Shown: one piece after another, positions 5,534 through 20,850 of the stretch
How the letters are laid out: every line of letters begins with the position of its first letter
Position numbering within the stretch: position 1 is the first letter of the stretch
DNA from: an uncultured Planctomycetota bacterium
GTDB taxonomy: Bacteria; Planctomycetota; PUPC01
Length of the DNA stretch: 22,031 nt
Assembly (NCBI GenBank): GCA_964385685.1
Contig: CAYLQD010000063.1
Span: forward strand, 1 to 22,031
Direction of reading: 5' to 3'
Notes under the pieces: model-generated
Databases searched by the model: none
The model's input: only the letters and a program-made list of their open reading frames with translations
What the model was told of the DNA's origin: nothing
Program-made: the position numbers and the translations under genes

Positions 5534-6507
5534 TGCCTGTACTCTCCTTCCTCTTTCTGCTTCTTCGCGTAGTCCTGCCGCTCGTTCTGGCTGGGGACGG
5601 GGCGGTCGTCGGGCCCGACGTACTCGATCATGCTGAGGTCGAGCATCTGGACCATCGGCTCGCGCTTCGACGCGGCCCAGGCGCGGCCGCGCTTCATCGA
5701 GTAGAGCGCGTGGGCGGCGCAACTGAACGCGCGGGAGACGCTGCCGATGCACCAGGCGGCGTTGGGCGCGAAGCCGAGATCGCAGAGGGCGGTGTTGCCG
5801 GCGCCGACGACGTTGACGCCGACGTGCGACCGGCCCTCGCGCTCGCGGCGCGCGTGGAAGTGCCGCTCGATGGCCCGCTGGAGTTCGAGATACACGCCGT
5901 TGACTCTCAGCTCCTCCTGCTTGAGGTGGGTCGGTTCCCCCCGCGGGTCCCCGTCGGTGTGCTGCGGCTGGCCGAGGCCCATCACGGGCCGCTTCGCGTC
6001 GAAGTACTCGTCGACGAGCGTCTTGCCGGTCTCATCGAGCGACTTGCCTTCGGCCCGCGCGCGTTCGAGGTGCTTGTTCATCATGTAGCCGTGCGCGGCG
6101 CCGGGCCCGTGGACGCCGCCGAACGTCATGATCGACGCGGCGACGGCGCAGGGCAGGTTGGGCCGGCCGGCGATGACGCCGAGGGCCGCGGCCGCGGAGG
6201 GCGACATCGAGTGCTCCATGAACTCGCCCATCTCGTACTTGAGCATCTCCTCCTCGTTCTCGGTCGGGATGCGGTTCTGGAAGAGGATGAACATCCCGTC
6301 GTAGAACGAGTAGCCCTCTTCGGCGAGGTCGCTCAGGTTGTAGCCGCGGAGGACGGTCTTCTCTTCCGTCTTGAAGGAGATACTCGTCTTGCGCCGGAAG
6401 AGCGGCCGGCGCTCCTTTTCCTCAGGCACCGAGACAGGACGGCGGGGCGGCCCCTCGGACCGGCGCCGCAAGCGAGGCCGTCGGATCTGGATCCCCATCA
6501 GTTTCAT
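5521..6507 (-). CDS. citrate synthase-family protein (divergent), paralogue 2
   Basis: ...TSISFKTEEKTVLRGYNLSDLAEEGYSFYDGMFILFQNRIPTENEEEMLKYEM... is a clear citrate-synthase N-terminal signature. GGVHGPGAAHGYMM resembles the GPLHGGANE region. MGLGQPQHTDGDPRGE resembles GFGHRVYK-x-DPRA, but with Gln at the catalytic His position. The paralogy with the 4490..5533 gene is evident by eye. The ATG at 6507 is preceded by GGAG 6 nt upstream. Confidence 0.55.
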   Translation of the reverse strand: MKLMGIQIRRPRLRRRSEGPPRRPVSVPEEKERRPLFRRKTSISFKTEEKTVLRGYNLSDLAEEGYSFYDGMFILFQNRIPTENEEEMLKYEMGEFMEHSMSPSAAAALGVIAGRPNLPCAVAASIMTFGGVHGPGAAHGYMMNKHLERARAEGKSLDETGKTLVDEYFDAKRPVMGLGQPQHTDGDPRGEPTHLKQEELRVNGVYLELQRAIERHFHARREREGRSHVGVNVVGAGNTALCDLGFAPNAAWCIGSVSRAFSCAAHALYSMKRGRAWAASKREPMVQMLDLSMIEYVGPDDRPVPSQNERQDYAKKQKEEGEYRQWVI

Positions 6508-6638
6508 GGTGCGGCTCCTCTTGTGTGAGTTCCCGGGCTTCCCGCGGCCAGCGGTGCCGGTCAGGCGATGGGCGCGCCGTGGTGCAGCGCAACGCGGTCG
6601 CTTGTCAGCGAGCCGGGCCGGCGCGTGCCTCTAACTCA

Positions 6639-6669
6639 ATTATAAGTCATTGTCGGCGCACGGGTGTCG
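6639..6669 (-). promoter_or_regulatory. candidate sigma-70 promoter for the citrate-synthase-like operon: TATAAT -10 with a weak CCGACA -35 at a 19-nt spacer
   Basis: The minus-strand sense reads ...ccgacacccgtgcgccgacaatgacTTATAATtgagttagagg.... This gives a perfect extended -10, about 130 nt upstream of the ATG at 6507. The -35 is poor. Confidence 0.3.
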
Positions 6670-6790
6670 GAAATGAGCGCGAAGGTGTGGTGGCTGCGCG
6701 TTCTCGTCGGCGGGGTGGTCCTTGGCCGCCGAGCGGGGCTCGGGGGCACTCGAGCGGCGCCTCATGTCTCATGTCCCACGGTCATGCATG

Positions 6791-6806
6791 TGTACCATAT
6801 GGTACA
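6791..6806. promoter_or_regulatory. perfect 16-bp palindrome TGTACCATATGGTACA (TGTA-N8-TACA), copy 1; candidate dimeric transcription-factor operator
   Basis: Exact inverted repeat in a comparatively AT-rich stretch of a 920-bp intergenic region. An identical copy lies 122 bp away. Confidence 0.5.
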
Positions 6807-6912
6807 TTAATAACGCATTTCTGCAGGAGACTCCGCATGCGTGTTATGTTCTAAGAGCATATTTTATCTAGTATTACGGAGCTGATCGGCGGGAACAGGA
6901 AGGCGTAGATTT

Positions 6913-6928
6913 TGTACCATATGGTACA
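6913..6928. promoter_or_regulatory. perfect 16-bp palindrome TGTACCATATGGTACA, copy 2
   Basis: Identical to copy 1. The interval between the two copies contains a further imperfect inverted repeat, AATAACGCAT-N18-ATGCGTGTTAT. Confidence 0.5.
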
Positions 6929-7286
6929 TAAACTGAGCCTTTCTGTTGCGGGGAAGGGCGAGCGACAAGAGGGAACTGCCTCGTCCTCTTGTTCGCTCCC
7001 GCCTTCGCCCTTCGACAAGCTGAGTGCCCGCGGAGGCGGGCAAGGTTCGGCGGACAAGTCGCGGACCCGGACGAAGTTCGGGCCACCCGGAGGCGGTGTG
7101 GCCTTCCCGCGGCTGCCGGTGTGGACGACGAACCATGCGAACTCGTGGGTGAAGACGAGCGCTTATTGAGGTCCATGTTGGTAATGGAATCGCGGCAGCT
7201 TATCAAGAGATTCTTCGCTGACGCTCAGAATGACAGAACTATAGGTCACACAATGAGACATGTCATCCTGAGCGAAGCGAAGTTCA

Positions 7287-7321
7287 CCCGCCCAAGGCGG
7301 GCTTGCCCGCCGCGCAGGCGG
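7287..7321. other. two adjacent GC hairpins with identical stems (CCCGCC-caa-GGCGGG and CCCGCC-gcgca-GGCGGG), 110-145 nt 3' of the flotillin gene
   Basis: Read directly from the sequence. No U-tract follows on either strand. They may act as a terminator or stabiliser for the 7432..9654 transcript. Confidence 0.3.
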
Positions 7322-7431
7322 GGACCTCTGTTGTTCCTCGCTGATGTTCCATTATCAGCATGGAGTTCAATAGAGCGGCGGCGCGGGCGGCGTTGAGGAG
7401 CTTGGTGCCCATGACGTCGCAGATGCCGGCG

Positions 7432-9654
7432 TCAGGGCTGCGGGGCCTCGTAGGTGTCGTCGAGAGGCAGGGCCTCCGGCATTTCGGAGCCGGCTTCGGG
7501 TGCGGGCGCGGCGGCCGCTTCGTCGGGCGGCGCCTCTTCCGTATCCACGGGCGCGGCCGCTTCGTCGGCCGGTGCCCCTTCCGCATCCACGGCCGCGGCC
7601 GCCTCGTCGGGCGGCGGCGCTCCCGTATCCATGGGCACGGTGGCCGTCTCGTCGGGCGGCGGCGCTCCCGCATCCATGGGCGCGGCGGCCGTCTCGTCAG
7701 ATGACGGCTCCTCACCGGGTCGGACCGGGCCCATGAAATACTTGGTCAGGACCGAGGCGAGCCCATCGATCGAGCCAGAGCCGCCTCCGCCGGCGACGAG
7801 CACTTCGGGCACGAACTTGTTCTTGCCCTCGGCCACGGCGTGGGCGATGTTCACGAGCGCCGTCGGCGTTTGCCCGAGCGCCGCGACCTGCGCCCGGAAG
7901 GCCTCGGCGCGTGCCATGCCGATCGAGCGGTGCTTGGCGCCCTGCGCCTCGCCGGTCTTCTGGATGTACTCGGCCTCGCCCGAGCCCTCGGCCTTGCGGG
8001 CGTCGGCCTCGTTGGTCTTGATGTCGATGCTGACCTGCGACTTGGCGAGGTCGCGCTGCATGTCGGCGGTGCCGCGCGCCTTCTCCGTCGCGACGCGCTG
8101 GTTCTCGGCCGTCTCCTGCATCTCGTACGTCGCGATCTCCTGGTTCGCAATCTCGCGGTCGGTCAACACCTTGACGAGTTCCTGCGGCAAGACGACGTCC
8201 TGGATGTAGACGCCCGGCGTCTCGACCTTGTACTGCCCAAGCTCTTCCTGAATGTGCTGGAGCGCCTCCTTCTGCACGAGCTGGCGCGTCTCGATGAAGC
8301 GGATGGCGGGCATGCTCTGGAGCTTGTCGCGGAAGTGGTTGCCGACGGCCGCCTGCAACACTTCGTTGGCGAGGTTCTGCATCGTGCCGACCATCGAGAT
8401 GACCCACGGGGCTTGGGTGTCTGCGACGTGGATCTGGACCTGGAGGTCGATGGAGAACTCGAAGCCCTCGCGGCTCTTCGCGATGATGGGCTTGAGGTGG
8501 GCGTCGAGGTCGTGGGCGCGCGAGATGGCCTCCGCCCAGTTGAGCGTCAGGATGGCGGTCATCACGATCTGCGGCTGGTAGCAGTGGGGGTTGATCGGAT
8601 ACTTGCCGGTGCGAAGCGGCTCCTGCCAGATTCCGCGGTGGCCGGGGCGGACGAGCGACCCGAACTTGAACTCCTCGCCCGACGTGTCCTGTGTGACGAG
8701 GCCGACGTAGGACTTGATGACGGCAACCTGCCCCTGCTCGACGACCAGCATCGGCACGATCTCGACGCTGACGAGGAATGGGTTGAGCGTGTAGGCGCCG
8801 TAGAGCAACGGGTCGTGCTGAAGTCCGATCTTGCCGCCGCTGTCCAGGAACGCCTGGAAGTCCTGATAGTTGTTGTGCTTGTTGTTCTTGCTGCCGAGGA
8901 TCGCCTCGATCAGGTCATGGTCGGTCGTGCCCTCCGTGTGTTCCATCTCCTCGATATCCGAGAACCTGCCGAGCCGGCTCGCGATGGCGCCCGGCGGCAG
9001 CGGGTCCCCCTCATACGTGGTCACGATCCCGAGCGTGTCGATCGTCCGGCCGTCTTCGCCATGGACCTGCGGGCCGATGCGAAGGACGCGGAGCTGTTCG
9101 GGCGCCAAGCCGAACGACTCCGAAAGCAGCGCGCCGTCGCGCGCCGTGGCCTTCAGCTTGAGTTCTTCGGAGATGGGCACGCCATAGACACGGTCCTCGG
9201 TGATAGTCAGGAACGCCGCCGGATGGATAGGGGCAAGGGTGCCCGGCGGCAGCACGGGGCGCTGCACTCCCTTCTGCCCGCCGTTTTCGAGGAAGACGTG
9301 CAGGTCGCTGAAGTTGCCCAGCTCTGTCTTGTACACGGCCGACTTGGCGCCCGTCGGCAGCGGCGCGCCGACCTGGGCGACGACGACGCCGATCTTGCCG
9401 GCCGGAATCTGTACCCACGGATGCTTGCGGACGATATAGACGACCCAGAACTTGAACCGCCAGCCCGGCATCAGAAGGTCCGCCTGATACCCCGCCTCCC
9501 CGCGGAACGCGATGGGGTTATCCTCGCTCAGCTTTCTGAGCGAGAACCGCTTGATGACCAGGCCGATCTGCGTCGGGCCGATGATGCGGATCGACGGCAC
9601 GATCAGGATCAAAGCCACAATGAGGACCAGTGCGAGAATTGCCAAGGTGCCCAT
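7432..9654 (-). CDS. flotillin-family (SPFH/band-7 domain) membrane protein with a C-terminal acidic repeat tail
   Basis: 740 aa. N-terminal hydrophobic segment MGTLAILALVLIVALILIVPSIRIIGP. A long SPFH-like core. Then Glu/Ala-rich heptad-like flotillin repeats (...ATYEMQETAENQRVATEKARGTADMQRDLAKSQVSIDIKTNEADARKAEGSGEAEYIQKTGEAQGAKHRSIGMARAEAFRAQVAALGQ...). The ATG at 9654 is preceded by GGAGG at a 6-nt spacing. Confidence 0.7.
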   Translation of the reverse strand: MGTLAILALVLIVALILIVPSIRIIGPTQIGLVIKRFSLRKLSEDNPIAFRGEAGYQADLLMPGWRFKFWVVYIVRKHPWVQIPAGKIGVVVAQVGAPLPTGAKSAVYKTELGNFSDLHVFLENGGQKGVQRPVLPPGTLAPIHPAAFLTITEDRVYGVPISEELKLKATARDGALLSESFGLAPEQLRVLRIGPQVHGEDGRTIDTLGIVTTYEGDPLPPGAIASRLGRFSDIEEMEHTEGTTDHDLIEAILGSKNNKHNNYQDFQAFLDSGGKIGLQHDPLLYGAYTLNPFLVSVEIVPMLVVEQGQVAVIKSYVGLVTQDTSGEEFKFGSLVRPGHRGIWQEPLRTGKYPINPHCYQPQIVMTAILTLNWAEAISRAHDLDAHLKPIIAKSREGFEFSIDLQVQIHVADTQAPWVISMVGTMQNLANEVLQAAVGNHFRDKLQSMPAIRFIETRQLVQKEALQHIQEELGQYKVETPGVYIQDVVLPQELVKVLTDREIANQEIATYEMQETAENQRVATEKARGTADMQRDLAKSQVSIDIKTNEADARKAEGSGEAEYIQKTGEAQGAKHRSIGMARAEAFRAQVAALGQTPTALVNIAHAVAEGKNKFVPEVLVAGGGGSGSIDGLASVLTKYFMGPVRPGEEPSSDETAAAPMDAGAPPPDETATVPMDTGAPPPDEAAAAVDAEGAPADEAAAPVDTEEAPPDEAAAAPAPEAGSEMPEALPLDDTYEAPQP
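7486..7698 (-). repeat. five tandem ~42-bp (14-15 aa) repeats encoding the acidic, Pro/Ala-rich C-terminal tail of the flotillin (DETAAAPMDAGAPPP / DETATVPMDTGAPPP / DEAAAAVDAEGAPA / DEAAAPVDTEEAPP / DEAAAAPAPEAGS)
   Basis: Visible in both the DNA and the translation. Confidence 0.75.
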
Positions 9655-9737: not shown

Positions 9738-9797
9738 GGGCTTTTTGCTGAAACTTGCGCGGCCATTCCCCCGCCGCTTCCGTTTCCGGCAAGCCGA

Positions 9798-10868: not shown

Positions 10869-12260
10869 TCACACCCGTCGCCGTCTGCGGCTGATCCCCA
10901 CCAGCCCAATCAGCCCCAGTCCGCCCGGCTCGGGGACGGGCGGGCGGGTGGCCGGGATGAGCCACAAGGTGAACCCCGGATTCGTCAGCCGGAGCTGGCC
11001 GAGCGGGAAGAAGCGGTCGTAGAGACAGAGCAGCGGGGTCGTGTCCCATTCGTCCGGCTGCAGGTGGTCCATCCAACTCGCGTAGAGGGCCGAGTTCAGC
11101 TCGACGGGCGGCAGGGCCTCGGCCTCGAAGTCGAAGACGAGCACGTTGCCGGGATTGCCGACCTCCGTGAACGTGAACCGCGGCATCACGGGGAGCGTGG
11201 CCTGATACGTACCGCCGTTGATGTGCGTCCGCGTCGCGGTCAGCTCGCCCTGCTGTTGCGTCGGGCTCAGATCGACAGACACGTCGAACTCCACGTCGCC
11301 TCCCGGCATGCCCGTGACGACGATCGGATCGGTGGACTGGAGACTGAGCGCGACGATCTCGATGGGAGTCGTGTCCATGTCGCCGACGCGAGGCAGGTTG
11401 AGTTCACCCGCCCGCGCGATGAGTGTGTCGGTCGAATCGTAGGGATCGGGCGCCGCGGCGTCGGCCGGCACGCCGCCGTCGAACGGATCGGAGCCGGGGC
11501 CGAAGAAGCCCGCGGGAATGGCCGGCACACCGCCCTTGCCGAACTCGACCTGGCACTGGACCGTCTCGTGGCACATCCAGCCGTCGATCGTCGCGCCGCA
11601 GATCGGCAGCAGGCACTCCTGAACGGGATTCTCGTACACGCCGTCGTATCCATCGAGCGGGCCGCCGACCGCTCCCTCGAATCCGGTCATGTATGAGATG
11701 TCGAAGGAGCTGTCGACGTTGTAGTCCCCGTCCGGCAGCTTGGTCAGCGTGACCTGGCCGAGGCACGGCGTGCCGTAGTTGCTCCCGGCGACGTACCAGA
11801 AGCTCTGGAAATTTGGGTCGGGCGGCGCGCCGCCCTCGAGCACGAGCAGGTTCGTGTCGAACGTCTGGACCGGGGCGCCCAGGGTCCGCGGCCCGGCGTG
11901 CGCGCCCATGAAGCCGTTGGCGTCGATCATGCCGCTGAAGCCGGCGAGGTCCCCGAGGCCGATGACGTCGAAATCGGCGTCGCACTGGACCGTCCCCTCG
12001 CATTCGCCGTCCAGCCCGGTGAATACCTCCTGGAAGTTATGGCAGTCCGACAGATCGAGGTCGCACTCGAGTTCCCAGTCGGGCGGCGGGACGGAATCGG
12101 CGCCGAACGTGATCCCGGTCATGTACATCGGGATCGTGATCAGGTCTTCGAGGTTGACCGTTCCCGTGCCGTCGTCGGGCGCGGTCGGCCCGGCCGCCGC
12201 TGGCGCCGCCAGCGCCATCGCGACTGTGACGCCCAATGCTGTCCGCATTATCATCCTCAT
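10869..12260 (-). CDS. PEP-CTERM sorting-domain protein 1 (Cys-rich secreted protein)
   Basis: Signal peptide MRMIMRTALGVTVAMALAAPAAAG. The C-terminus, ...PVPEPGGLGLIGLVGISRRRRRV*, carries the full PEP + hydrophobic helix + Arg-cluster signature of exosortase substrates. An AAAGGGGG Shine-Dalgarno site lies 7 nt before the ATG. Confidence 0.75.
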   Translation of the reverse strand: MRMIMRTALGVTVAMALAAPAAAGPTAPDDGTGTVNLEDLITIPMYMTGITFGADSVPPPDWELECDLDLSDCHNFQEVFTGLDGECEGTVQCDADFDVIGLGDLAGFSGMIDANGFMGAHAGPRTLGAPVQTFDTNLLVLEGGAPPDPNFQSFWYVAGSNYGTPCLGQVTLTKLPDGDYNVDSSFDISYMTGFEGAVGGPLDGYDGVYENPVQECLLPICGATIDGWMCHETVQCQVEFGKGGVPAIPAGFFGPGSDPFDGGVPADAAAPDPYDSTDTLIARAGELNLPRVGDMDTTPIEIVALSLQSTDPIVVTGMPGGDVEFDVSVDLSPTQQQGELTATRTHINGGTYQATLPVMPRFTFTEVGNPGNVLVFDFEAEALPPVELNSALYASWMDHLQPDEWDTTPLLCLYDRFFPLGQLRLTNPGFTLWLIPATRPPVPEPGGLGLIGLVGISRRRRRV

Positions 12261-12353
12261 TCTGTGCCCCCTTTCTTCTCTGCGGCGGCGCGGGCTGTGG
12301 CACAGCCACCCATCCCCCGCCCCGCCTTCCTGTTTCCTGTTCCGCCGCTGCGG

Positions 12354-14492
12354 CTACCTCCTTCTCTTGCGCGCCAATCCGATCCATCCGATCAGCAGCA
12401 GCCCCCACGCGCCCGGCTCGGGAATCGGCTCGCCGGTGCTAGGATCGACGACGACGAACTCGACGCCCGGCGTGTCGCTCTCCGGCTGCAGGTCCCACGT
12501 GTCGCCGAAGTCGATGTCGGCCCAGCCGGCGGCGTCGGACCACGCGTCGCCGCCCAGAGCGTAGTAGAGCGAGACATGCTCGCCCGGGGCGAGGAAGAAC
12601 ACGTCCTCCAGCAGAATATCGAGCGAGACGTTGAGGTCGACGCCGTTGGCCTGCGGGGTGACCACGAACGCGGAGTCGTACGCGGGGGCCTCGATGTCCA
12701 CCAACGGCATCACGAAATCGTCGTCGTCGCTGTCCGTGTTGAATACCGCGACCATGTACTGTCCAAGGCCCTCGTCGTAGAAGAGCTTGATGGTGGCATC
12801 GACCAGCGTCACTTCGGGGCTCGTCTCCGAGGCGGCCTGGGCGGTGAAGGCGAACTCCACCCTGCTGTCCTCTTCGCGGATGGACAGGGCGCCCGTGAGC
12901 AGCCAGCCGAGGTCGAAGTCGATGATTTCATCGCCGCCGACGGGCTCGAGTTGACTGACGAACGCGCCAGCACCCCAGGCGTGACGTGCGGTCGCTTCGG
13001 CGCCAAACGGGATGTACTCCCCCTCGGCGTACGCCTGGGCGGCGACCGAGCCGCCGCCGCCGAACGGGTTAATGGTCGCCCGGCCATGGCCCGAGGCGAC
13101 CGTCTGGGCGCCTTCGGTATGCTCGACGTCCACCGTCACGCCGTACGGGGGCGTATCGTCGGTGACGTCGAAGCTGTCGCCGTCCACTTCACCGGCCCTC
13201 GCACGGGCATAGGTGTCGTCGAGGTCGATGGTCTCGCCGGTCCCGCCGAGGGTCGCGGTGTAGACGGCGCTGCTCCCTTCGCCGTCCATGGTGAACGCGA
13301 CGGTGTCGCCGCGTACGCTCCGGTTGCCGATGCCGAATCCGGCCCAGTCGTAGCCGTTGAAGTCGTCGCCGCTGGCGGTCACCCGGTGCAGCGTGGCGCC
13401 CTCGAGGAAGTACAGGCCCATCGCGCCGTCGTCGTTACGGGTGGCCGTGAACGCGATGTTGTCGCCCCACCGCGACACGCCCTCCATCCCGATGCCGGTG
13501 AAGCCGCTGCCGTCTTCGGGGTCGGTGACGTCGTCGGGCACGGCCGTGGCAAGCGTGCCGCTATCGACCGTGACGATGACGCCGTTGGCACCCAGCGCCA
13601 CGTTGCCCTCGTGGACGCTGTAGCGGAGGAAGTTCCCCACCGGATTCCCGGTGTCGGGCACGATGTCCTGGCTGTCGACAATCTTCAGAAGGTCGCCGCC
13701 GGCCGTGTCCATCGAGTAGAGGCCGTAGCGGCCGACGTTGCTGAATCCGCCGAAGTAGATGCGGGTGCTGCCGCCGACCTCGGTGAACTGCGGATGGTAG
13801 TAGTGGAGGAACGTCTCGCCCGGCGCGTCCGGCACGGCCGCCGTGTCGTCCATGAATCGGGTGAGCGTGTCGGTCGAGTCGTTGAACAGGTAGAGCCCGT
13901 TCTGCGTCAGCGTGTGCGTCGCGGACGTTCCCGCGGCGAAGACCTGGCGGCGGCCGTACACGTCGGTCTGGGTGAACGACTCGAACGGAACGCCGTAGCC
14001 GGGCGCAATCGTCGCCAGGTCGGCGACGCGCGTGCCCGTTCCGCGGTACACGCTCGGCTGGCCGGTGTGAGTGGAGGGCGGATCGATGACATAGCCGTAC
14101 GCCGGGTACGTGCTGTCGGGCTTCTCGTCGAACGCGAAACTCCTCGGCTGATGAAGCAGCTCGCCCGATCCCGAGGGTGGGGCCTCCGTGGTCGTGTCGA
14201 AGACGACGCGGCCGGACAGCGCCATGTGGCTGTCGTAGAGCCCGTAGGTCCCGTCGCTCAGCCAGCCGGTGAAGGCGACGGTTTCGGCGGTCGACTCGTC
14301 GCTCAGAGCGGGGCCCATCCTGGCGTCCGAGACCTGGCGGAACGTCCCGCCTCCGCCGGCCGGCGCCGCCGACTCGCCCGCGATCCGCTTGAACACGAAG
14401 TCGGCCCGCGCGGGCGTCGCACACGCCAGCACGAGACCCGCCGCCACGCCCGACACGAACATCATCACCGCAACTTGCCTGAACATCTTCAT
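12354..14492 (-). CDS. PEP-CTERM sorting-domain protein 2 (large secreted protein, about 712 aa)
   Basis: C-terminus ...GEPIPEPGAWGLLLIGWIGLARKRRR*. The track ORF (to 14699) over-extends through the intergenic motif. The real start is ggaaGGAGATGAAGATGttc (ATG at 14492 or 14486), giving the signal peptide M(KM)FRQVAVMMFVSGVAAGLVLACATPARA. Confidence 0.7.
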   Translation of the reverse strand: MKMFRQVAVMMFVSGVAAGLVLACATPARADFVFKRIAGESAAPAGGGGTFRQVSDARMGPALSDESTAETVAFTGWLSDGTYGLYDSHMALSGRVVFDTTTEAPPSGSGELLHQPRSFAFDEKPDSTYPAYGYVIDPPSTHTGQPSVYRGTGTRVADLATIAPGYGVPFESFTQTDVYGRRQVFAAGTSATHTLTQNGLYLFNDSTDTLTRFMDDTAAVPDAPGETFLHYYHPQFTEVGGSTRIYFGGFSNVGRYGLYSMDTAGGDLLKIVDSQDIVPDTGNPVGNFLRYSVHEGNVALGANGVIVTVDSGTLATAVPDDVTDPEDGSGFTGIGMEGVSRWGDNIAFTATRNDDGAMGLYFLEGATLHRVTASGDDFNGYDWAGFGIGNRSVRGDTVAFTMDGEGSSAVYTATLGGTGETIDLDDTYARARAGEVDGDSFDVTDDTPPYGVTVDVEHTEGAQTVASGHGRATINPFGGGGSVAAQAYAEGEYIPFGAEATARHAWGAGAFVSQLEPVGGDEIIDFDLGWLLTGALSIREEDSRVEFAFTAQAASETSPEVTLVDATIKLFYDEGLGQYMVAVFNTDSDDDDFVMPLVDIEAPAYDSAFVVTPQANGVDLNVSLDILLEDVFFLAPGEHVSLYYALGGDAWSDAAGWADIDFGDTWDLQPESDTPGVEFVVVDPSTGEPIPEPGAWGLLLIGWIGLARKRRR

Positions 14493-14561
14493 CTCCTTCC
14501 CTCCTTTCACAAGTTTCACGTCCGGCCAAGTACCATCCGCACTCATTTCCTTCTTCTCAGC

Positions 14562-14588
14562 GCCTGCCCTGAGCCACGTCGAAGGGCC
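14562..14588 (-). repeat. ~27-nt recurring motif (sense GGCCCTTCGACGTGGCTCAGGGCAGGC), copy A. Other copies at 15704-15731 (B), 20106-20132 (C, inside the gene 8 coding tail) and 18968-18988 (D, inverted, overlapping the gene 7 stop)
   Basis: Near-identical strings read directly from the sequence. Contains an internal GCCCT...AGGGC stem. In copy C the same nucleotides encode the ...ALRRGSGRALGRKGRRR* tail of protein 8. In copies A and B the equivalent frame would read ALRRGSGQAL(R/K).RR(K/R) followed by a stop. Confidence 0.55.
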
Positions 14589-14604
14589 AGCATCGCGATT
14601 CTGC

Positions 14605-14680
14605 GCGACGGCAACGCCGTCGCGGGCGGCCTTCACCTCTACGGCTTCTCGCCGGTTTGGCCCGTGTTGGCCAAACCGGC
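14605..14680 (-). terminator. two strong hairpins 3' of PEP-CTERM gene 3: GCGACGGC-aac-GCCGTCGC (14605-14623) and a 12-bp stem GCCGGTTTGGCC-cgtgtt-GGCCAAACCGGC (14651-14680)
   Basis: Perfect stems read from the sequence. No U-tract follows, so intrinsic-terminator status is uncertain. The first hairpin is duplicated at 15748-15766, 3' of gene 4. Confidence 0.35.
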
Positions 14681-14720
14681 CCGGGCGGCTGATCGCCACA
14701 GCAATCAGCTTGCGGCCCTC

Positions 14721-15641
14721 CTACGAAAGGGCCGCCCGCCTCCTCCTCCGCAGCAGCAGGAGGGCCGCTATCAGCCCGAGCCCCGCGGGCTCGTGGACGG
14801 GCTCGCCGGCCAGGAAGTGGCCCGACTCCGACGTCCACGTGACGCCCTCGGGCACCTGCACCGGGCCGAGCGTTACGGTGTGGTGGTAGTGGACGCCCAA
14901 ATGAATCCCGCTCATGGCCAGCGGGTCCGGATTGACCCCCGCCGTCTCGGCGTCGGCCTGGATGGATGCGCTCATGTCGAACTCGGTAACCTTCTCGGTG
15001 TAGGAGAAGAAGGGCTCGATCGTCGTCCGTAGCTCGCCCTGCGTGTTGACCGTTCTGCCGCCGGGCGCCTCCACCAGGTCGACGATGTCCTGGAACGTCG
15101 TGATCCCGAGCGCCAGCCGCACCTCCGCGAGCAGGGCAAACCCCGTCACCGGCGGGCCGCCCGGATCCTGGAGAAGGGCCTCGACAAGGCCGGTGATCGT
15201 GTATGGAATCACGACGTCGACGCCCTCGGGATAGTTGCCCGGCGGCGTGGTGATGAGCAGCTTGTCGCGCATCTCCACGAACGAACTGGCGGTCACTCTC
15301 GACCAGCCGCCGGGGTATGCGGCGTTCTCAATGGCGGCGTATGCCCCCATCTCGGCCGTCCGCAGGTCGACAAGCCCATAGCCCTCGGCGATGTCCCCTT
15401 CAACCCCGGCGAGCGTGCCGTCGCCGACGAGGGTCGGCTCCTGGCTGAACTCCATCTCGTCGATAAACTGAATCTCTCCATCCGGGCCCGGGTCGACCTC
15501 TAGGTACATCATCCGCGAGGTGACGTGGGTCGTCTCGGCCACCGCGGCCGACGCGCACCAGGCGAGCACGGCGATCGCAACCGCCGCCGCGCAGCACGCC
15601 AGTGGCCGCAGCGGTCTTCCTGTGTTCCGCTCGTTCCTCAT
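14721..15641 (-). CDS. PEP-CTERM sorting-domain protein 3 (paralogue of protein 4)
   Basis: Real start MRNERNTGRPLRPLACCAAAVAIAVLAWCASAAVA, with its ATG at 15639-15641 preceded by GGAAGGAGGAGGaca. The track ORF extends to 15782 through the upstream motif. C-terminus ...HEPAGLGLIAALLLLRRRRRAALS*. Confidence 0.7.
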   Translation of the reverse strand: MRNERNTGRPLRPLACCAAAVAIAVLAWCASAAVAETTHVTSRMMYLEVDPGPDGEIQFIDEMEFSQEPTLVGDGTLAGVEGDIAEGYGLVDLRTAEMGAYAAIENAAYPGGWSRVTASSFVEMRDKLLITTPPGNYPEGVDVVIPYTITGLVEALLQDPGGPPVTGFALLAEVRLALGITTFQDIVDLVEAPGGRTVNTQGELRTTIEPFFSYTEKVTEFDMSASIQADAETAGVNPDPLAMSGIHLGVHYHHTVTLGPVQVPEGVTWTSESGHFLAGEPVHEPAGLGLIAALLLLRRRRRAALS

Positions 15642-15657
15642 TGTCCTCCTCCTTCCC

Positions 15658-15674
15658 GGCGCCCCCTTGGCGCC
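15658..15674 (-). promoter_or_regulatory. leader hairpin GGCGCC-ccctt-GGCGCC immediately 5' of the Shine-Dalgarno site of PEP-CTERM gene 3 (member of a recurring element)
   Basis: GGCGCC is self-complementary, so GGCGCC-N5-GGCGCC forms a 6-bp stem with a 5-nt loop. It lies roughly 1-6 nt 5' of the GGAGGAG-type Shine-Dalgarno site in the mRNA sense. Other copies: 16738-16754 (gene 4, loop gttgc), 20825-20841 (gene 8, loop gttgt), 21549-21565 (gene 9, loop gttgt) and a variant GCGCC-gcgcg-GGCGC at 17471-17485 (gene 5). Confidence 0.5.
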
Positions 15675-15812
15675 CGTCCCGTTCAACGCCTCCTCGTCTT
15701 CAACGCCTGCCCTGAGCCACGTCGAAGGGCCATCATCGCCAGCCGCGCGACGGCAACGCCGTCGCGTTGGCAGAATGGCCAAGAAGCCATTCGGCCAGCG
15801 GCCCGCTCGTGC

Positions 15813-16721
15813 TCAGCGTCTCTTTCTTCGCAGCAGCACGAGGGCCGCCATCAGTCCGAGCCCCGCCGGCTCTGGAACGGGCTCGCCGGCCAGGAAGAAG
15901 CCCGACTCCGACGTCCACGTGACGCCCTCCGGCACCTGCAGCGGCCCGAGCGTCACCGTGTGGTCGTAGTAGACGCCCAGATCGATCCCGCTCGCGGCCA
16001 GGGGATCCGGATCGACCCCCGCCGTCTCGGCCTGGGCATCGATGTACGCGGCCATGCCCATCTCGGTGACCTTCTCGGTGTAGGAGAAGAAGGGTTCGAT
16101 CGTCGTCCGCAGCTCGCCCTGCCGGTTGACCGTCACGACGCTCGGCGCCGACACCAGGTCGACGATATCCTCGAACGTGGTGATCCCCAGCGCCATCCTC
16201 ACCGCCGCGAGCATGTTGAACCCCGTCACCGGCCCGCCGAGCGGGTTCTGGAGGTCGGCCTGGAGAACGCCGGTGATCTGGTACGGGATGATGACGGGGA
16301 CTCCATCGGGGTAGTTGCCCGGCGGCGTGGTGATGAGCAGCGTGTCACGCATCTCCACGGACGAGCTGGCGGTCGCGCTCGACCAGCCGCTGGGGTACGA
16401 GGCGTTTTGGATGGCGGCGGACGCCCCCAGCTCGCCCGTCCGCAGGTCGACGCGCCCCTGGCCCTCGGCCATGTCGCCTTCGATCCCGGCGAGCATGCTG
16501 CCGCCGATCAGCATCGCTTCGTGGCTGAACACCGTCTCGTCAACGAACTGGAACTCGCCGTCCTCGCCCGGGTCGACCTCCAGGTACATCATCCGCGAGG
16601 TGATGTGGACTTGCTGCTGAGCCGCAGCGGACGCGCACCATGCGAGCAGGGCGATCACAACACCCGCCGCGCAGCACGCCAGCGGCCGCAGCGACCCTCC
16701 TGCATTTCTTCCGTTCCTCAT
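15813..16721 (-). CDS. PEP-CTERM sorting-domain protein 4 (paralogue of protein 3)
   Basis: MRNGRNAGGSLRPLACCAAGVVIALLAWCASAAA...PVPEPAGLGLMAALVLLRRKRR*. Same leader and Shine-Dalgarno site as gene 3. Extensive identity to gene 3 is visible at the DNA level. Confidence 0.75.
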   Translation of the reverse strand: MRNGRNAGGSLRPLACCAAGVVIALLAWCASAAAQQQVHITSRMMYLEVDPGEDGEFQFVDETVFSHEAMLIGGSMLAGIEGDMAEGQGRVDLRTGELGASAAIQNASYPSGWSSATASSSVEMRDTLLITTPPGNYPDGVPVIIPYQITGVLQADLQNPLGGPVTGFNMLAAVRMALGITTFEDIVDLVSAPSVVTVNRQGELRTTIEPFFSYTEKVTEMGMAAYIDAQAETAGVDPDPLAASGIDLGVYYDHTVTLGPLQVPEGVTWTSESGFFLAGEPVPEPAGLGLMAALVLLRRKRR

Positions 16722-16762
16722 TGTCCTCCTCCTTCCTGGCGCCGTTGCGGCGCCCGTTATGC

Positions 16763-17455
16763 CTACCGCCTTCTTCTTCTCGCCGTAATCATTGCCAGCC
16801 CGAGCAAGCCGAGGCCGGCGGGCTCGGGGATGGGCGGGCCGGCAGTCCGGATGTCGGAAAGGACGTACGTCCCGACGCCATTGTTGATTCCGAAGGTGAC
16901 GTAGAGCGCATGGGCGAAATCGGTCGGGCCGGCGATGAAATCGCTGTACAAGAACTCGTAGACGCCGGGGCCCGTGATGTGATGCGTAAGCTCCGAGTCG
17001 TTCACTGCCATGTCGCTCACCTTGGTGACCATGCTGTCCATCGGCCCGGCGCCGTCGGCTCGGGTCAAGGTGACCAGAATGCGGTCGTGCTGCCCGCCTT
17101 CCGTGAGGTCGACGTTGTTCAGGCCGGCTTGGCCCACGCCGTCGTAGAAGAACGCCGCGAGCGCTCCGCCACCATCGCCGGTGTTGTTGAACGCAATGAT
17201 CGTGGCGTCTGGGTCCGGTGTCAGTTGCAGGTCGGCGGTCACGGACGCAGTTGGCGCGCTACCCGCGTTGAGCGAGACCTCCCGCTCGGTGCCGACGATG
17301 CTGCTTGCCGGGCCCGTCTGGATGTCGGTGTTCGTCCCCGGGTGGCTCAGCGAAAACGGCCCCTCTTCGAAGTCATCAATCACGACCGCTTTGGCCGGCG
17401 CCGCCAACAGCACGACGACGGTACAACATAGCATCACGATCCCCGTCTTTGTCAT
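16763..17455 (-). CDS. PEP-CTERM sorting-domain protein 5 (about 230 aa)
   Basis: Start MTKTGIVMLCCTVVVLLAAPAKA (ATG at 17453-17455, with GGAGGAG 8 nt upstream). C-terminus ...PIPEPAGLGLLGLAMITARRRRR*. The track ORF over-extends to 17521. Confidence 0.7.
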   Translation of the reverse strand: MTKTGIVMLCCTVVVLLAAPAKAVVIDDFEEGPFSLSHPGTNTDIQTGPASSIVGTEREVSLNAGSAPTASVTADLQLTPDPDATIIAFNNTGDGGGALAAFFYDGVGQAGLNNVDLTEGGQHDRILVTLTRADGAGPMDSMVTKVSDMAVNDSELTHHITGPGVYEFLYSDFIAGPTDFAHALYVTFGINNGVGTYVLSDIRTAGPPIPEPAGLGLLGLAMITARRRRR

Positions 17456-17495
17456 CTTGTCCTCTCCTCCGCGCCGCGCGGGCGCTTCAGCTGCG

Positions 17496-18842
17496 TCACC
17501 TCCTTCGCCGTATGAATCCAAGCATCCCCAGGCCGATCAATCCCAGAGCGCCCGGCTCGGGAATGATGAGGTCTCGCATGGCCGACGCGTGCGACGAGAT
17601 CGCGGCGAGGGTCGATGCGTCGGTGTCGTAGACCGAATACCAGCCGGGCGTTTCGTGCGGCGGGTCGCCGATCCACTGCGGGACCGGATCGCCCGGGCGG
17701 CCCTCGCCGCCCCACGCCCAGAAGTTGTCGCCCGCAGCCGACCCGCCCGACGACGCGGACGCATAGACCGCGTCGAACATCGCGGCGTAGAACGCGTCGC
17801 GGTGCGACGTCGGCGCGGCCGGGTCGTGGTGGTCGGGCCCGGTCCAGCCGTCGCGCGCCAGGCCGAACTCCTCGAGCACAACGGGCTTGGCGAGGATGTT
17901 GAGCGCCTCCTGCTCGTGGGTCTGGAAGTAGGCGAGCGCCTGGGCTTCGGCCGCGGCGTAGGTTGTGGGATCGGTCGGGTTGTACCAGCCCCAGTTCTCC
18001 GGCCAGATGTGCGTCGTCGCGTAGTCGATCTTTTCGCCGTTGTGCGTCTCGACGAACGTCCGGTCCTCCCATCCGGCGAGCCACGTCTCGGCGCCGGTCT
18101 CGCCCTCGAAGCCGGTCGTCACGAGGTGGTTGGGATCGAGCGACTTGATGTACGCGGCGGTGTCGTCGATCCAGTCGGCGGGGAACCGCCGCGGCTCGTT
18201 GGCCAGCTCCCACGCGAAGATGGTCGGGTCGTCTTTGTACGCCTCCCCGTTCACGGTGTTGACGCGGCCAACGACCTCGTCGATGTGGTCGCGGAACCAC
18301 GTCTGGCACTGCGCGTTCGTGTAGAACTGCGCGCTGTAGTTCTGGAACGCGTTCCAGTCGCCGGGATAGGGGATCGATCCGCCGATATCCCACTGAACGT
18401 ATTGGGCCATGCCGCCGGACCAGTGCCAGAAGTTGTTGAGGACCATCACGGCCCGCATGTCGCGCTGGTTCATCTCGTCGAGCAGGTGGTCGAGCCCGCC
18501 GAAGACGGCCGGGTTGTAGACGCCGGGCGCGGTCTGGAGCGACGGGACGGCGCGGTAGGGCTCTGTGTCGGGTCCTTCGGAGCCGGCCAGGATGCGCAGG
18601 TTGGTGATGCCGGCGGCCTGGAGGCGGTCGAGTTCGCGGCTGAGGCGCGCGCGGTTGCCGTCTGGGCCGACGACGCCGAGGTTCATCCCCTGCCAGAGGT
18701 TCGCGCCGACGAAGTTGTAGGGCTGTCCGTCGAGTTCAAAGGCCACGCCGTTGACGGCGACGAACCCGAAGTTGTCGGCCCGCGCCATTACCGCCGAGGC
18801 CAGCAGCGCCCCGGCGATGACTATGGATAGACACTTGCTCAC
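17496..18842 (-). CDS. glycoside hydrolase family 5 endo-beta-mannanase-like enzyme carrying a PEP-CTERM sorting tail
   Basis: Signal peptide MSKCLSIVIAGALLASAVMARA (GTG start, with GGAG 9 nt upstream). It has ...IFAWELANEPR..., the GH5 catalytic-acid NEP motif in the WELxNEPR context typical of GH5 mannanases. It also has ...KPVVLEEFGL..., the nucleophile E in a TEFG-like context. C-terminus ...IIPEPGALGLIGLGMLGFIRRRR*. Confidence 0.65.
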   Translation of the reverse strand: MSKCLSIVIAGALLASAVMARADNFGFVAVNGVAFELDGQPYNFVGANLWQGMNLGVVGPDGNRARLSRELDRLQAAGITNLRILAGSEGPDTEPYRAVPSLQTAPGVYNPAVFGGLDHLLDEMNQRDMRAVMVLNNFWHWSGGMAQYVQWDIGGSIPYPGDWNAFQNYSAQFYTNAQCQTWFRDHIDEVVGRVNTVNGEAYKDDPTIFAWELANEPRRFPADWIDDTAAYIKSLDPNHLVTTGFEGETGAETWLAGWEDRTFVETHNGEKIDYATTHIWPENWGWYNPTDPTTYAAAEAQALAYFQTHEQEALNILAKPVVLEEFGLARDGWTGPDHHDPAAPTSHRDAFYAAMFDAVYASASSGGSAAGDNFWAWGGEGRPGDPVPQWIGDPPHETPGWYSVYDTDASTLAAISSHASAMRDLIIPEPGALGLIGLGMLGFIRRRR

Positions 18843-18983
18843 TGTAGTGACTCCGGCCAGGGAATCACGCCGCGCAAGGCGCGCCGCATCCTCTCATTGC
18901 GGCCCCCGAGGGGCCGTTCTCGATCTGTTCCACCCGCCCAAGCGGGTGCTCAGCTTCTTTTGCGTCGCCGCCCTTCGACGGGC

Positions 18984-19907
18984 TCAGCGTCTTCGCTGCC
19001 GCTTCGACAGCCCGATCGCTGCCAACCCGAGGAACCCGAGCCCGGCCGGCTCGGGGATGATGGTGAGGTCCAACGCAACGCCCCCCGGGCCCGAAAGCCC
19101 CGTCACGACGTCCTCGGCGTTGCTGCCGTCGAGATCCGCGCGCTGGATCGAGTTCAGGTCGCGATCGGCCCAGTACATCTTGCCCGCGGCCACGTCGAGC
19201 GCGATCCCACGGGGGTTCGGCTGCGACACCAGAAGATCCTCGACGTTGCTGCCATCGAGGTTCGCACGCTGGATCTTGTCCGTTGCGAAAGCCGTCCAGT
19301 ACACCTTGCCGCCGGCAGGGTCCACCGCGATCCCCCAAGCGTCCTCAATTCCGCTGCTCACCAGGGTCTCGACGTTACCGCCGTCCAGATCGGCGCGCCT
19401 GACCAGGTCGTCAGCACCCGCACCCTGCTGCTCGACCCAGTACATCTTGCCGTTGGTCAGGTCGAGGTCGATGGCAACGGGGACCAAGAGGCCGGTCGTT
19501 ACGAGGTTCTCCACGTTGCTGCCATCGAGGTCCGCGCGTCGGATCGCGTCCGCCCACGCCTCGGTCCAGTAGACCTTGTCCGCGGCCAGGTCGAGCGCGA
19601 CGCCCGCCGCGCCATCGGCGCCGGTGATCAGGTCCTGGACGTTGCTGCCGTCCAGATTCGCGCGCTGGACCTTGTCTGCGAGCTCGTCCGCCCAGTACAT
19701 CTTGCCCCCGGCACCATCCAGCGAGATTTCAGCCGGGACGTCCAGCCCTGTCGTTACCAGGTCCTCGACGTTCGAGCCGTCCAGGTCGGCGCGCTGGATC
19801 TTGTGCGCGTCATGGTCCGTCCAGTACACCTTGGCGGCCTGTGCGCGCGGCGCCGCGAACACCGCGACGCAAACCGTCACCACCAAACCCACGATTGCCT
19901 TCCTCAT
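18984..19907 (-). CDS. six-bladed YWTD (LDL-receptor class B-type) beta-propeller protein with a PEP-CTERM tail
   Basis: Six ~42-aa repeats of the form K(V/M)YW(T/A)D....IQRA(D/N)LDGSNVEDLVT.GL..P.GIALD. Start MRKAIVGLVVTVCVAVFAAPRAQA (ATG at 19905-19907, with GGAGG 8 nt upstream). C-terminus ...TIIPEPAGLGFLGLAAIGLSKRQRRR*. The track ORF over-extends to 19976. Confidence 0.65.
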   Translation of the reverse strand: MRKAIVGLVVTVCVAVFAAPRAQAAKVYWTDHDAHKIQRADLDGSNVEDLVTTGLDVPAEISLDGAGGKMYWADELADKVQRANLDGSNVQDLITGADGAAGVALDLAADKVYWTEAWADAIRRADLDGSNVENLVTTGLLVPVAIDLDLTNGKMYWVEQQGAGADDLVRRADLDGGNVETLVSSGIEDAWGIAVDPAGGKVYWTAFATDKIQRANLDGSNVEDLLVSQPNPRGIALDVAAGKMYWADRDLNSIQRADLDGSNAEDVVTGLSGPGGVALDLTIIPEPAGLGFLGLAAIGLSKRQRRR

Positions 19908-20077
19908 CTCTCCATCCTCCAAAAGGTTCCTCTGCTTCAACACCACGCAGGCGACCGCCGCCTGCGTCCGCTCCAACTCACCAGCGCCAGGCCGATGAGC
20001 CCAGCCCCCTTCGTCGTCGATTGGCTCGCATCACCTCCTTTCCGCGGGCGGCGGCTGTCATCCGGCCCGCCCGTCTC

Positions 20078-20806
20078 TCAGCGCCGTCTCCCCTTTCTTC
20101 CCAGTGCCCGTCCTGAGCCCCGTCGAAGGGCCAGCGCCGCCGGCCCGATCAGAGCCAGCCCGGCCGGCTCGGGGACGACGGGCGGTGGCGGGACGCCGTC
20201 ACCCGTTATCACAAAGGCGAGGTCGAGCGACTCGGCCGTGATCAGGTCGGGGTAACTCGATACGTCGGCGGTCTTCCAGCCCCAATTGCCGTGGGCAGCC
20301 GTCACGGAGATCCCCAGCCAGTAGGTGGTGCCCTCCTCCTGGAAGAACGGATCGGCGATGTTCGCAACGTTGTATTGATAGCACTCGGTATGGTCGTGCT
20401 GAGCGTAGTTACCCGAGCCCGGGTCGAACCAGCCCTGGTCGCCCGTACCGTAGAAGCGTTCCGCCCATTCCCCTGGGTAAAGGTCGCGCTGCCAGAGCAG
20501 GACGTCCGGTTTGCTCTGGTCATCCGCGTAGATGCTGAGGCGGATCTCGGAGAGCGTGCCCACAGTGTCGCCCTTCCATGAGCCCCAGAAATGGATGTCC
20601 GTGACCGGTCCGCTCGCCGTGCACGTCCAGTCGTCGGCCAGGACCGTGTCACCATACGCGGCCACGTCCCAGCCGTTCAGGTCGGGCAGTTGCGGAAAGT
20701 GCATCTTATGCCCGTCGCCGGGGTCCCAGTCGGCGCGGGCCGCCGCAGCGACCAACGCAACGGCCGCGAGCACAACCGCCGCTCCGCCGATAGCCTTCGT
20801 CTTCAT
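20078..20806 (-). CDS. PEP-CTERM sorting-domain protein 8 with an unusually extended basic tail
   Basis: Start MKTKAIGGAAVVLAAVALVAAAARA (ATG at 20804-20806, preceded by the GGCGCC hairpin and a GGAGGAG Shine-Dalgarno site). C-terminus ...VVPEPAGLALIGPAALALRRGSGRALGRKGRRR*. The track ORF over-extends to 21025. Confidence 0.65.
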   Translation of the reverse strand: MKTKAIGGAAVVLAAVALVAAAARADWDPGDGHKMHFPQLPDLNGWDVAAYGDTVLADDWTCTASGPVTDIHFWGSWKGDTVGTLSEIRLSIYADDQSKPDVLLWQRDLYPGEWAERFYGTGDQGWFDPGSGNYAQHDHTECYQYNVANIADPFFQEEGTTYWLGISVTAAHGNWGWKTADVSSYPDLITAESLDLAFVITGDGVPPPPVVPEPAGLALIGPAALALRRGSGRALGRKGRRR

Positions 20807-20850
20807 CGTGCTCTCCTCCTTCTTGGCGCCGTTGTGGCGCCTGTTTGTCC

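Follow-up and report, generated by a model that had tools for sequence, protein, structure and literature searches.

Why would a long intergenic gap without a credible gene carry two identical copies of a 16-bp palindrome? This question is raised by a 22,031-bp stretch of DNA from an uncultured Planctomycetota bacterium (GenBank assembly GCA_964385685.1, contig CAYLQD010000063.1, positions 1 to 22,031; hereafter "the window," meaning the whole of this stretch), in which the sequence TGTACCATATGGTACA, with the core TGTACC-ATAT-GGTACA, occurs twice, with starts 122 bp apart, in a 924-bp gap (6508 to 7431) flanked by two minus-strand genes (Table 1). A first description made from the sequence alone (the original prediction) had read the pair as the target of a dimeric regulator and had pointed to the CRP/FNR family. 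Here, we compare the gap with metagenome and genome loci (L numbers) and with the proteins encoded in them (P numbers). The sites do look like dimeric-regulator targets, and the comparison suggests that they are operator-type sites for a PaaX-like repressor encoded outside the window, possibly controlling the promoter of a citryl-coenzyme A (CoA)-lyase-like operon. We assign this reading a probability of about 0.6.

Window sites resemble a site upstream of a PaaX-like gene

The twin palindromes proved to be exactly as first described. When up to three mismatches were allowed, TGTACCATATGGTACA matched only these two sites in 22 kb, against an expectation of 0.00 from 100 shuffles. The DNA around them is AT rich for this genome: G+C content is 42% at 6791 to 6928, 60.6% in the gap as a whole, and 66.4% elsewhere in the window. 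The repeat reaches 33 nucleotides (nt; 82% alike) on one side of each site, with no likeness further out, and the string GC.TT.CTG stands at equal distance in three of the four arms adjoining the two cores. Site 2 lies at the center of a longer palindrome (16 of 20 positions symmetric), and no other palindrome in the window reaches 15 of 20. The window derives from a metagenome scaffold (ENA, SUTE22-1, SAMN10231894). Two other assemblies contain the gap with zero differences, and three others that cover the locus are 100% identical, which leaves no variation to compare.

Sequence comparison places the window sites in a family of palindromes that is tied to paaX-like genes. Of the 36 bases that make up site 1 and its flanks, 33 are identical, in matching orientation, to positions 9772 to 9807 of L223 (gtcatgtaaa, TGTACCATATGGTACA, ttaataacgc), the distal of two sites that lie 142 bp apart upstream of the PaaX-like gene for P0129 (start at 10001). 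The spacers between paired sites are similarly AT rich in the window (43% G+C), in L223 (44%, 126 bp), and in L220 (44%, 45 bp), in genomes of 66 to 68% G+C. In addition, the extended palindrome at site 2 has a size and layout similar to those of the 40- to 44-bp palindromes that bracket PaaX-like genes, as described below.

PaaX-like genes are bracketed by their own palindromes

In L181/L220, a 262-amino-acid (aa) gene with PaaX_M (9.8e-12) and PaaX_C (1.4e-6) domains has two sites 61 bp apart upstream of it, a third site 40 bp past its stop codon, and a fourth upstream of surE, and the cores of these sites are identical to the window core. The only close homolog (45% identity) is encoded in L222, where the neighbors and the sites are kept and every core has the center ACGT, not ATAT. 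A profile search added 17 further subfamily members, the named ones coming from Planctomycetota metagenome-assembled genomes (MAGs).

We examined 10 loci in this respect (L220, L222, L223/224, L225, L226, L227, L228, L230, L231, and L232). A long palindrome stands 26 to 84 bp ahead of the PaaX-like start codon in all 10, and the same palindrome recurs 6 to 93 bp past the stop codon in 9 of them. These palindromes are genome specific, measure 40 to 44 bp, lie on high-GC contigs, and have further copies in other intergenic regions; their cores, by locus, are TGTACC-ATAT, TGTACC-ACGT, TGTCCC-AGCT, TGTCCC-ACGT, TGGTAC-ACGT, TGGTGC-GGCC, and CGACGC-ATAT. In 124 kb, 26 long palindromes (at least 15 of 20 positions symmetric) were found, and 15 of them fall within the 4.3% of the sequence that flanks PaaX-like genes (binomial P = 1.5e-14). 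Across 26 sites, 82% of cells are paired (56% when shuffled and 33 to 43% when slid), and double-change cells number 148, versus 59 ± 6 expected, which means that symmetry is kept as the sequence changes. As the comparison shows, the palindrome varies by locus together with the gene that it brackets. Paired sites are spaced at 61, 62, 87, 111, 114, 122, 142, and 143 bp, with no phasing rule visible.

Such bracketing could be read in another way. The palindromes may be hairpin repeats of 40 to 54 bp, akin to repetitive extragenic palindromes (REPs) and REPINs, that act at the DNA or RNA level as mobile or copied extragenic palindromes, mRNA-end stabilizers, or terminators, with the PaaX-like protein as their handling factor, not a classical repressor, and the window copies as dispersed members; we regard this as unlikely. 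It would account for a gene flanked by its own palindromes, as REP-associated tyrosine transposase (RAYT) genes are by REPs, for perfect copies (20 of 20 positions symmetric), for compensatory arm changes within a locus (L226, 9404 versus 15383; L232, 5704 versus 5904), for a center that is uniform per genome (ATAT or ACGT), for pairs 61 to 62 bp apart, one of them inside a dispersed repeat of 392 to 484 bp (L157/L219), and for downstream copies between convergent genes in L225 and L228. However, copy density is low, at two to four per 13 to 20 kb even beside the gene, and the neighbors of the paaX-like genes (topoVI-A, plsY, and surE) are kept in three lineages, which indicates vertical inheritance. 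In those window-core contigs that show both neighbors, the sites adjoin a gene start (L171, L151, and L204 end at the site). Compensatory differences could also arise from paralogous dimers that read different arms, neither a transposase motif nor a nuclease motif was identified, and no RAYT was seen in the fetched loci, which cover 13 to 20 kb per genome.

Several side observations concern the palindromes in these loci. Palindromes of 40 bp with the same layout (a 6-4-6 core with outer arms) and other sequences, e.g., gcgtaaatttaa|TGTCACATGTGTGACA|ttaaatttacgc, occur remote from paaX-like genes (L226, 17816; L223, 15371; L222, 749), and the L223 one sits between two convergent genes. Other paralogs may recognize these palindromes, or the palindromes may form part of a broader family. 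In L225, a transposase gene of the IS4/IS5 type (DDE_Tnp_1, 6349 to 7668) has two CGACGCATATGCGTCG sites (5985 and 6072) on one side and, on the other, a site at 7963 immediately before the paaX-like gene, and it looks as if the regulatory region had been split by an insertion sequence.

A distant relative of PaaX

The proteins encoded between these palindromes are relatives of PaaX. Subfamily sequences match the solved structures of Mycobacterium tuberculosis Rv0674 (3kfw, 2.5e-10) and Escherichia coli PaaX (8a39, 2.9e-9), and the best fold matches of an AlphaFold model (mean predicted local distance difference test score, 81.6) are PaaX (8a39, 2.3e-7) and Rv0674 (3kfw, 8.5e-7), followed by Cas2 proteins. 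The match to the PaaX model TIGR02277 is 3.6e-12, with 46 bits against a cutoff of 264.55, and the N-terminal domain PF07848 was matched in no subfamily member. The genes lie near mutY, topoVI-A, plsY, surE, and others, with no paa genes nearby. Judged on P0129 and P0121, the protein is thus a distant member of the PaaX family, not the phenylacetate repressor itself. It is also rare: at E ≤ 1e-30, the 1.84 billion representatives include 23 clusters of the subfamily, versus 1,363 at 1e-10 for the wider family.

E. coli PaaX binds a palindrome of about 39 bp, TGATTC-N27-GAATCA, and represses its own promoter (PMC9493321). From this behavior, a palindrome of 40 to 44 bp upstream of the protein's own gene is what would be expected in the family. 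Among the subfamily proteins, divergence is greatest in the N-terminal region (18 to 53% identity, versus 33 to 49% for the rest), which would agree with a changing DNA specificity. Core type and N-terminal similarity agree in part: P0136 and P0138 are 53% identical in this region, and P0126, which has the same core, is only 20 to 24% identical.

The middle domain of the protein is Cas2-like, which is a further point for the REP-like alternative. In its fullest form, that alternative would describe a self-marked system of high-GC Planctomycetota-type bacteria that has not been described before and is no plain repressor regulon. In it, a winged-helix and Cas2-like protein would be REP/RAYT-like or hairpin binding, the gene of every paralog would stand between its own perfect palindromes, the palindromes would evolve through compensatory changes in the manner of hairpins, and the window twins would be dispersed members, with copies spread partly by miniature inverted-repeat transposable elements (MITEs). 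We think it improbable that the system is of this kind.

The palindrome in metagenomes and its regulator genes

A metagenome scan returned at least 120 loci with the exact core. Among the matches listed, 60 hold a second TGTACC-N4-GGTACA-like site, which lies within 70 bp in 41 of the at least 120 loci listed, where our own estimate for chance is about 0.6 loci. A scan of viral contigs gave 24 matches, all of them single sites, which is the chance level by our estimate. As judged from sequence, the motif is a real cis-element. A literature search on the palindrome found nothing relevant.

The regulator genes beside the 41 listed paired-site loci are TetR-family or PaaX-like and are never of the CRP family. 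This bears on the original assignment, which had likened the sites to the TGTA-N8-TACA targets of CRP/FNR-family activators of the NtcA type and which we abandon as extremely improbable. The core does formally include GTA-N8-TAC, with no tool result in support, but the conserved unit is a 6-4-6 core (TGTACC-N4-GGTACA) with symmetric arms, so that conservation covers 6-nt half-sites and outer arms, and no CRP-family gene was found beside any examined locus. When both strands were inspected by eye, with no dedicated tool, neither site had a TAN3T-type −10 element at the class II distance (about 22 nt, for sites centered about 41.5 bp upstream of a start). NtcA is a cyanobacterial regulator, and the related contigs are of the Planctomycetota type.

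An operator for a TetR-family repressor is a better-founded alternative, and one that we still consider quite improbable. In at least 34 of the 41 listed paired-site loci, the identical core lies between a TetR-family gene and a divergent partner, which is either an SRPBCC-like gene (sites abutting, 16 bp) or a gene for a small membrane protein (sites 21 to 25 bp apart). Pfam confirmed TetR_N in L105 and L128; these two and about 32 other listed loci, within L100 to L219, are soil-type contigs. Their sites abut or are 21 to 25 bp apart, beside tetR and without the window flanks, whereas the window sites are 122 bp apart with flanks that match a PaaX-like-associated site. The TetR contigs also differ in composition and gene content, and the window open reading frames (ORFs) tested yielded no TetR_N domain. 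A third group of matches, on contigs of 61 to 69% G+C with sulfatase and similar genes, has the flank consensus AAGTTTCR, core, YGAAACTT, and its longer flanks resemble those of window site 2.

A proposed mechanism and the points against it

Under the PaaX-type reading, a PaaX-like dimer would sit on each site, and the two sites would act together across the AT-rich spacer, through cooperative binding or a DNA loop. The bound pair would repress a promoter in or beside the spacer; the simplest target would be the citryl-CoA-lyase-like operon on the minus strand, 284 bp off. If the analogy with PaaX extends to ligands, one of the acyl-CoA type might lift the repression, and the pairing of an acyl-CoA-sensing regulator family with CoA-dependent enzymes would make an attractive link.

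A number of observations weigh against this reading. A tblastn search of the 22-kb window found no PaaX-like gene or pseudogene, so that any binding to the sites would occur in trans. The nearest start codon is 284 bp from one site and 406 bp from the other, versus 26 to 200 bp at the other loci, and the promoter scan gave no sigma-70-like promoter in the inter-site spacer. Footprinting upstream of orthologs of the first lyase-like gene (CS1) in 72 other genomes revealed no such palindrome, which means that the palindrome is not a conserved part of the lyase-like operon. The symmetry of site 1 is confined to the 16-bp core, as in its L223 counterpart, and the same core stands beside TetR genes elsewhere. 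In L225 and L228, the copy past the PaaX-like stop lies between convergent genes and is therefore not simply the operator of the next gene. Finally, the arms differ among the sites of one locus, yet each site is perfectly symmetric (L226 and L232). Selection for hairpins and paralog-specific dimers fit these arm differences equally; the latter could explain them because two paralogs with different palindromes do occur in one MAG (L225/L231).

Orientation adds a further consideration. The module shared with L223 points the opposite way from the lyase-like operon, into the plus strand of 6929 to 7163, antisense to both neighboring genes, where a noncoding transcript is conceivable. The pair could also be a functionless relic, i.e., the remains of a paaX-like promoter region or a decayed site-carrying MITE, stranded in an expanded spacer; we find this doubtful. 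The module is oriented and laid out as the L223 promoter module is, yet it is followed by 235 bp of filler and a MITE-like element, not by a gene; site pairs are found elsewhere inside MITE-like elements that have the same terminal repeats (L219); and the spacer is unusually long compared with the gaps upstream of CS1 orthologs, which mostly measure 13 to 300 bp. On the other hand, both 16-bp cores are perfect amid diverged surroundings, no terminal-repeat remnant surrounds the pair, and the sequence is identical in three samples, so that no decay is visible.

Layout of the gap

Beyond the sites, the gap is not one structured element: GC-rich leader, hairpin-rich filler, and a TA-flanked MITE-like insertion of 209 bp together make up a mosaic (Table 1). 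In agreement with the original prediction, the gap was found to hold no credible ORF, and no match to it was found in plasmid and phage collections. Neither 6508 to 6790, nor 6807 to 6912, nor 6929 to 7163 has a homolog among the fetched metagenome loci. The stretch between site 1 and the lyase-like gene may contain a promoter or form a long leader, and the TATAAT that the original prediction had offered as a −10 element for the operon is found there on the minus strand. The inverted repeat that it had placed between the sites is likewise present. The two hairpins that it had reported further along exist, with coordinates shifted by 1 to 5 nt (arms at 6962 to 6972/6985 to 6996 and 7025 to 7031/7036 to 7042). 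A third structural claim, of GC-rich hairpins downstream of the flotillin-like (SPFH) gene, was right as to their existence (at about 7284 to 7322), but they lie inside the MITE-like element; the scan for intrinsic terminators found none after that gene.

Table 1. Positions of the features described in the text, in window coordinates
Feature	Position	Strand	Remarks
CS2, paralogous partner of CS1, 347 aa	4490-5533	minus	
CS1, citryl-CoA-lyase/citrate-synthase-like, 328 aa	5521-6507	minus	Start at 6507; first gene downstream of the sites on the minus strand
GC-rich stretch from site 1 to the start of the lyase-like gene	6508-6790	minus	Shine-Dalgarno AAGAGGAG at 6522-6515; TATAAT at 6644-6639
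Site 1 with flanks	6781-6816	plus	gtcatgcatg, core, ttaataacgc; block in common with the L223 distal site upstream of a PaaX-like gene
Palindrome 1	6791-6806		Core TGTACC-ATAT-GGTACA; exact match
AT-rich inter-site spacer	6807-6912		106 bp, 43% G+C
Imperfect inverted repeat in the spacer	6809-6818/6837-6847		AATAACGCAT/ATGCGTGTTAT
Extended palindrome centered on site 2	6894-6947		54 bp; arms of 27-30 nt, 81-83% complementary
Palindrome 2	6913-6928		Core identical to palindrome 1; exact match
GC-rich hairpin-rich segment	6929-7163		Hairpins at 6962-6996 and 7025-7042; motif CCCGGACGAAGTTCGGGCCACCCG at 7066-7096
MITE-like element	7164-7372		209 bp, TA at both ends; terminal inverted repeats TTGAGGTCCATGTTGGTAATGGAA at 7166-7189, imperfect complement at 7347-7370
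Hairpin repeat inside the MITE-like element	7206-7282		Arms at 7222-7235/7261-7274; motif GTCATCCTGAGCGAAGCGAAG
SPFH/Band 7 gene, 740 aa	7432-9654	minus	Stop at 7432, 59 bp from the MITE-like element; Band_7, 3.5e-16

The original prediction had offered a complex promoter region or a small regulatory RNA as the function of this interval. A complex regulatory spacer without an ORF agrees with what we found, whereas a small RNA gains no support from Rfam. That the interval serves mainly as a small noncoding RNA gene or as a cis-acting leader RNA is, in our view, very improbable. Inverted repeats make folding more stable than expected at 6770 to 6960 on the plus strand (z = −4.7) and in the segment 6929 to 7163 (z = −2.7 and −2.6, one per strand), the segment into whose plus strand the L223-type orientation points. 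Against this, the z-scores are similar on both strands, as DNA-level palindromes would give, and the 283-nt stretch leading to the lyase-like gene has an ordinary fold (z = −1.19). The scan of the window with Rfam 15 gave 0 matches at the gathering score (best subthreshold E = 0.41, for a microRNA model), no homolog of the three unmatched stretches named above was found in the fetched loci, and no tRNA or transfer-messenger RNA gene was found.

Two small features of the gap may be recorded here. The inter-site spacer contains a mini-ORF of five codons on the plus strand (6837 to 6854; ATG CGT GTT ATG TTC TAA, MRVMF), with AGGAG (6825 to 6829) 7 nt upstream; because it has no counterpart in the L223 spacer, it may be there by chance. 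The 31-nt motif CCCGGACGAAGTTCGGGCCACCCG recurs within an 81-bp tandem repeat near the start of the window, at 51 to 81 and 132 to 162.

A MITE-like element beside the sites

The MITE-like element next to the SPFH gene has terminal inverted repeats (TIRs) of 24 to 26 nt (85% alike over 26 nt), flanking TA, no ORF, and a further copy elsewhere; the terminal-repeat search gave two matches, against 0.01 expected. The further copy, at 12761 to 13244 of L219, is a 484-bp element with the same terminal repeats (TTGAGGNCCATGNNNNNAATGGAA), whose 82-nt TIRs are 95% alike, and it encloses two TGTACCATATGGTACA-type sites at a spacing of 62 bp. The inner 392 bp of the element are also present in L157 (91% identical), with different flanks. 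Since the L219 element carries a site pair, such pairs can travel on mobile DNA.

The window pair lies outside its neighboring element. No TIR-like sequence was found around the pair at up to three mismatches, and its region has no likeness to the L219/L157 element except for the sites. The original prediction had named a miniature-repeat origin as a fallback, which is partly right in that a MITE-like element adjoins the sites, but the pair itself is not part of it. No transposase partner was identified, and the copies of the element seen were two.

Inside the element lies a hairpin repeat, in whose loop the promoter scan made its sole match, a sigma-70-like ATGACA-17-TATAGT on the minus strand (7266 to 7238). 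Copies that are 78 to 79% identical occur in L223/L224 and L225 (13815 to 13889), those in L223 (12751 to 12824 and 13187 to 13221) flanking a 95-aa GIY-YIG gene (12901 to 13188), and a shorter match of 91% lies in L072 (2950 to 2972). The motif GTCATCCTGAGCGAAGCGAAG translates to CHPERSE and VILSEAK, which we take to be strings that end many spurious ORFs; a literature search on these peptide-like signatures of the hairpin repeat found nothing relevant.

Neighboring genes

CS1 matches Pfam Citrate_synt (1.2e-15) and two NCBIfam citryl-CoA lyase subfamily models (3.5e-32 and 2.2e-28, under the curated cutoffs), and its start codon at 6507 is preceded by a strong Shine-Dalgarno sequence. CS1 and CS2 are adjacent in every locus of sufficient length and have 73 to 81% (CS1) and 61 to 74% (CS2) protein identity to gene pairs in the 72 other genomes (L004 to L075), which belong to many phyla, suggesting a strongly constrained heteromeric enzyme, perhaps one that has spread horizontally. 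Pairs of this type were seen in MAGs of Planctomycetota, Chloroflexota, Verrucomicrobiota, Desulfobacterota, Bacteroidota, Gemmatimonadota, and Proteobacteria. The window protein has an arginine-rich N-terminal extension of about 30 residues that is lacking in most orthologs.

The SPFH gene, on the other side of the gap, is next to CS1 in none of the 72 other genomes. Its 3′ part (7504 to 7714) consists of four to five tandem repeats of 42 to 45 bp each (14 to 15 codons); as a result of these C-terminal repeats, the window protein is 40 to 90 residues longer than its homologs, being aligned over only 80 to 96% in the listed matches. A further tandem repeat, of 81 bp (27 codons), occupies 3 to 164 inside a heparinase II/III-like ORF, and its copy number seems to depend on the sample, since L002 has 81 bp more than L001 between the neighboring genes. 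Elsewhere in the window, at least six minus-strand ORFs within 10869 to 20916 end in a common GC-rich segment that encodes a PEP-CTERM-like sorting signal, with weak NCBIfam PEP-CTERM matches for the ORFs at 17496 to 18842 and 20851 to 21240, and segments spaced by 1080 bp are duplicated (14737 to 15036 and 15817 to 16116, 86% identity).

Significance and comparison with known systems

To our knowledge, transcription control in Planctomycetota is largely uncharted. The loci compared here offer a candidate regulator-operator pair whose DNA target can be read by comparison, since each gene is bracketed by its own site. Three features exceed what is usual for an operator: the copy past the stop codon, the arm changes that keep symmetry, and the site pairs borne by a MITE-like element, which could rewire regulation through transposition. 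If the PaaX-type reading holds, a widely transferred citryl-CoA-lyase-like gene pair may be controlled by a relative of an acyl-CoA-sensing repressor.

The PaaX proteins of E. coli and Pseudomonas, with their self-repressed promoter Px, have in common with the subfamily a homologous protein family, a palindromic target of about 40 bp, and sites upstream of their own gene (PMC9493321). In contrast to these, the subfamily sites change fast in sequence around a conserved 6-4-6 core layout (center C-A-N-N-T-G), an extra site copy stands just past the stop codon, and no paa genes are nearby. The TetR operators of soil-type contigs have the identical 16-bp core, also in pairs, but lack common outer arms and are spaced at 16 or 21 to 25 bp. 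REP/REPIN and RAYT systems are alike in their extragenic palindromes, doublets, and compensatory changes and in a gene flanked by its own palindromes, whereas in the fetched loci we find no Y1 transposase, near-perfect palindromes without orientation, low density, and a syntenic gene.

Two further comparisons concern the arrangement of the sites. The two-operator loops of gal, lac, and deo likewise have two identical operators, at spacings of about 60 to 140 bp, and the AT-rich DNA in between may contain a promoter; for the window pair, such a loop is hypothetical. Site-carrying MITEs such as the Correia elements of Neisseria, and elements of the IS630/Tc1 type with TA duplication, are alike in their TIRs and TA ends and, in L219, in the palindromes carried as cargo, but the window palindromes lie outside the element. 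Taken together, the kind of operator appears to be a known one, that of PaaX, and what appears to be new is a distant subfamily with an unusual distribution of its sites, which bracket the gene and are partly mobile.

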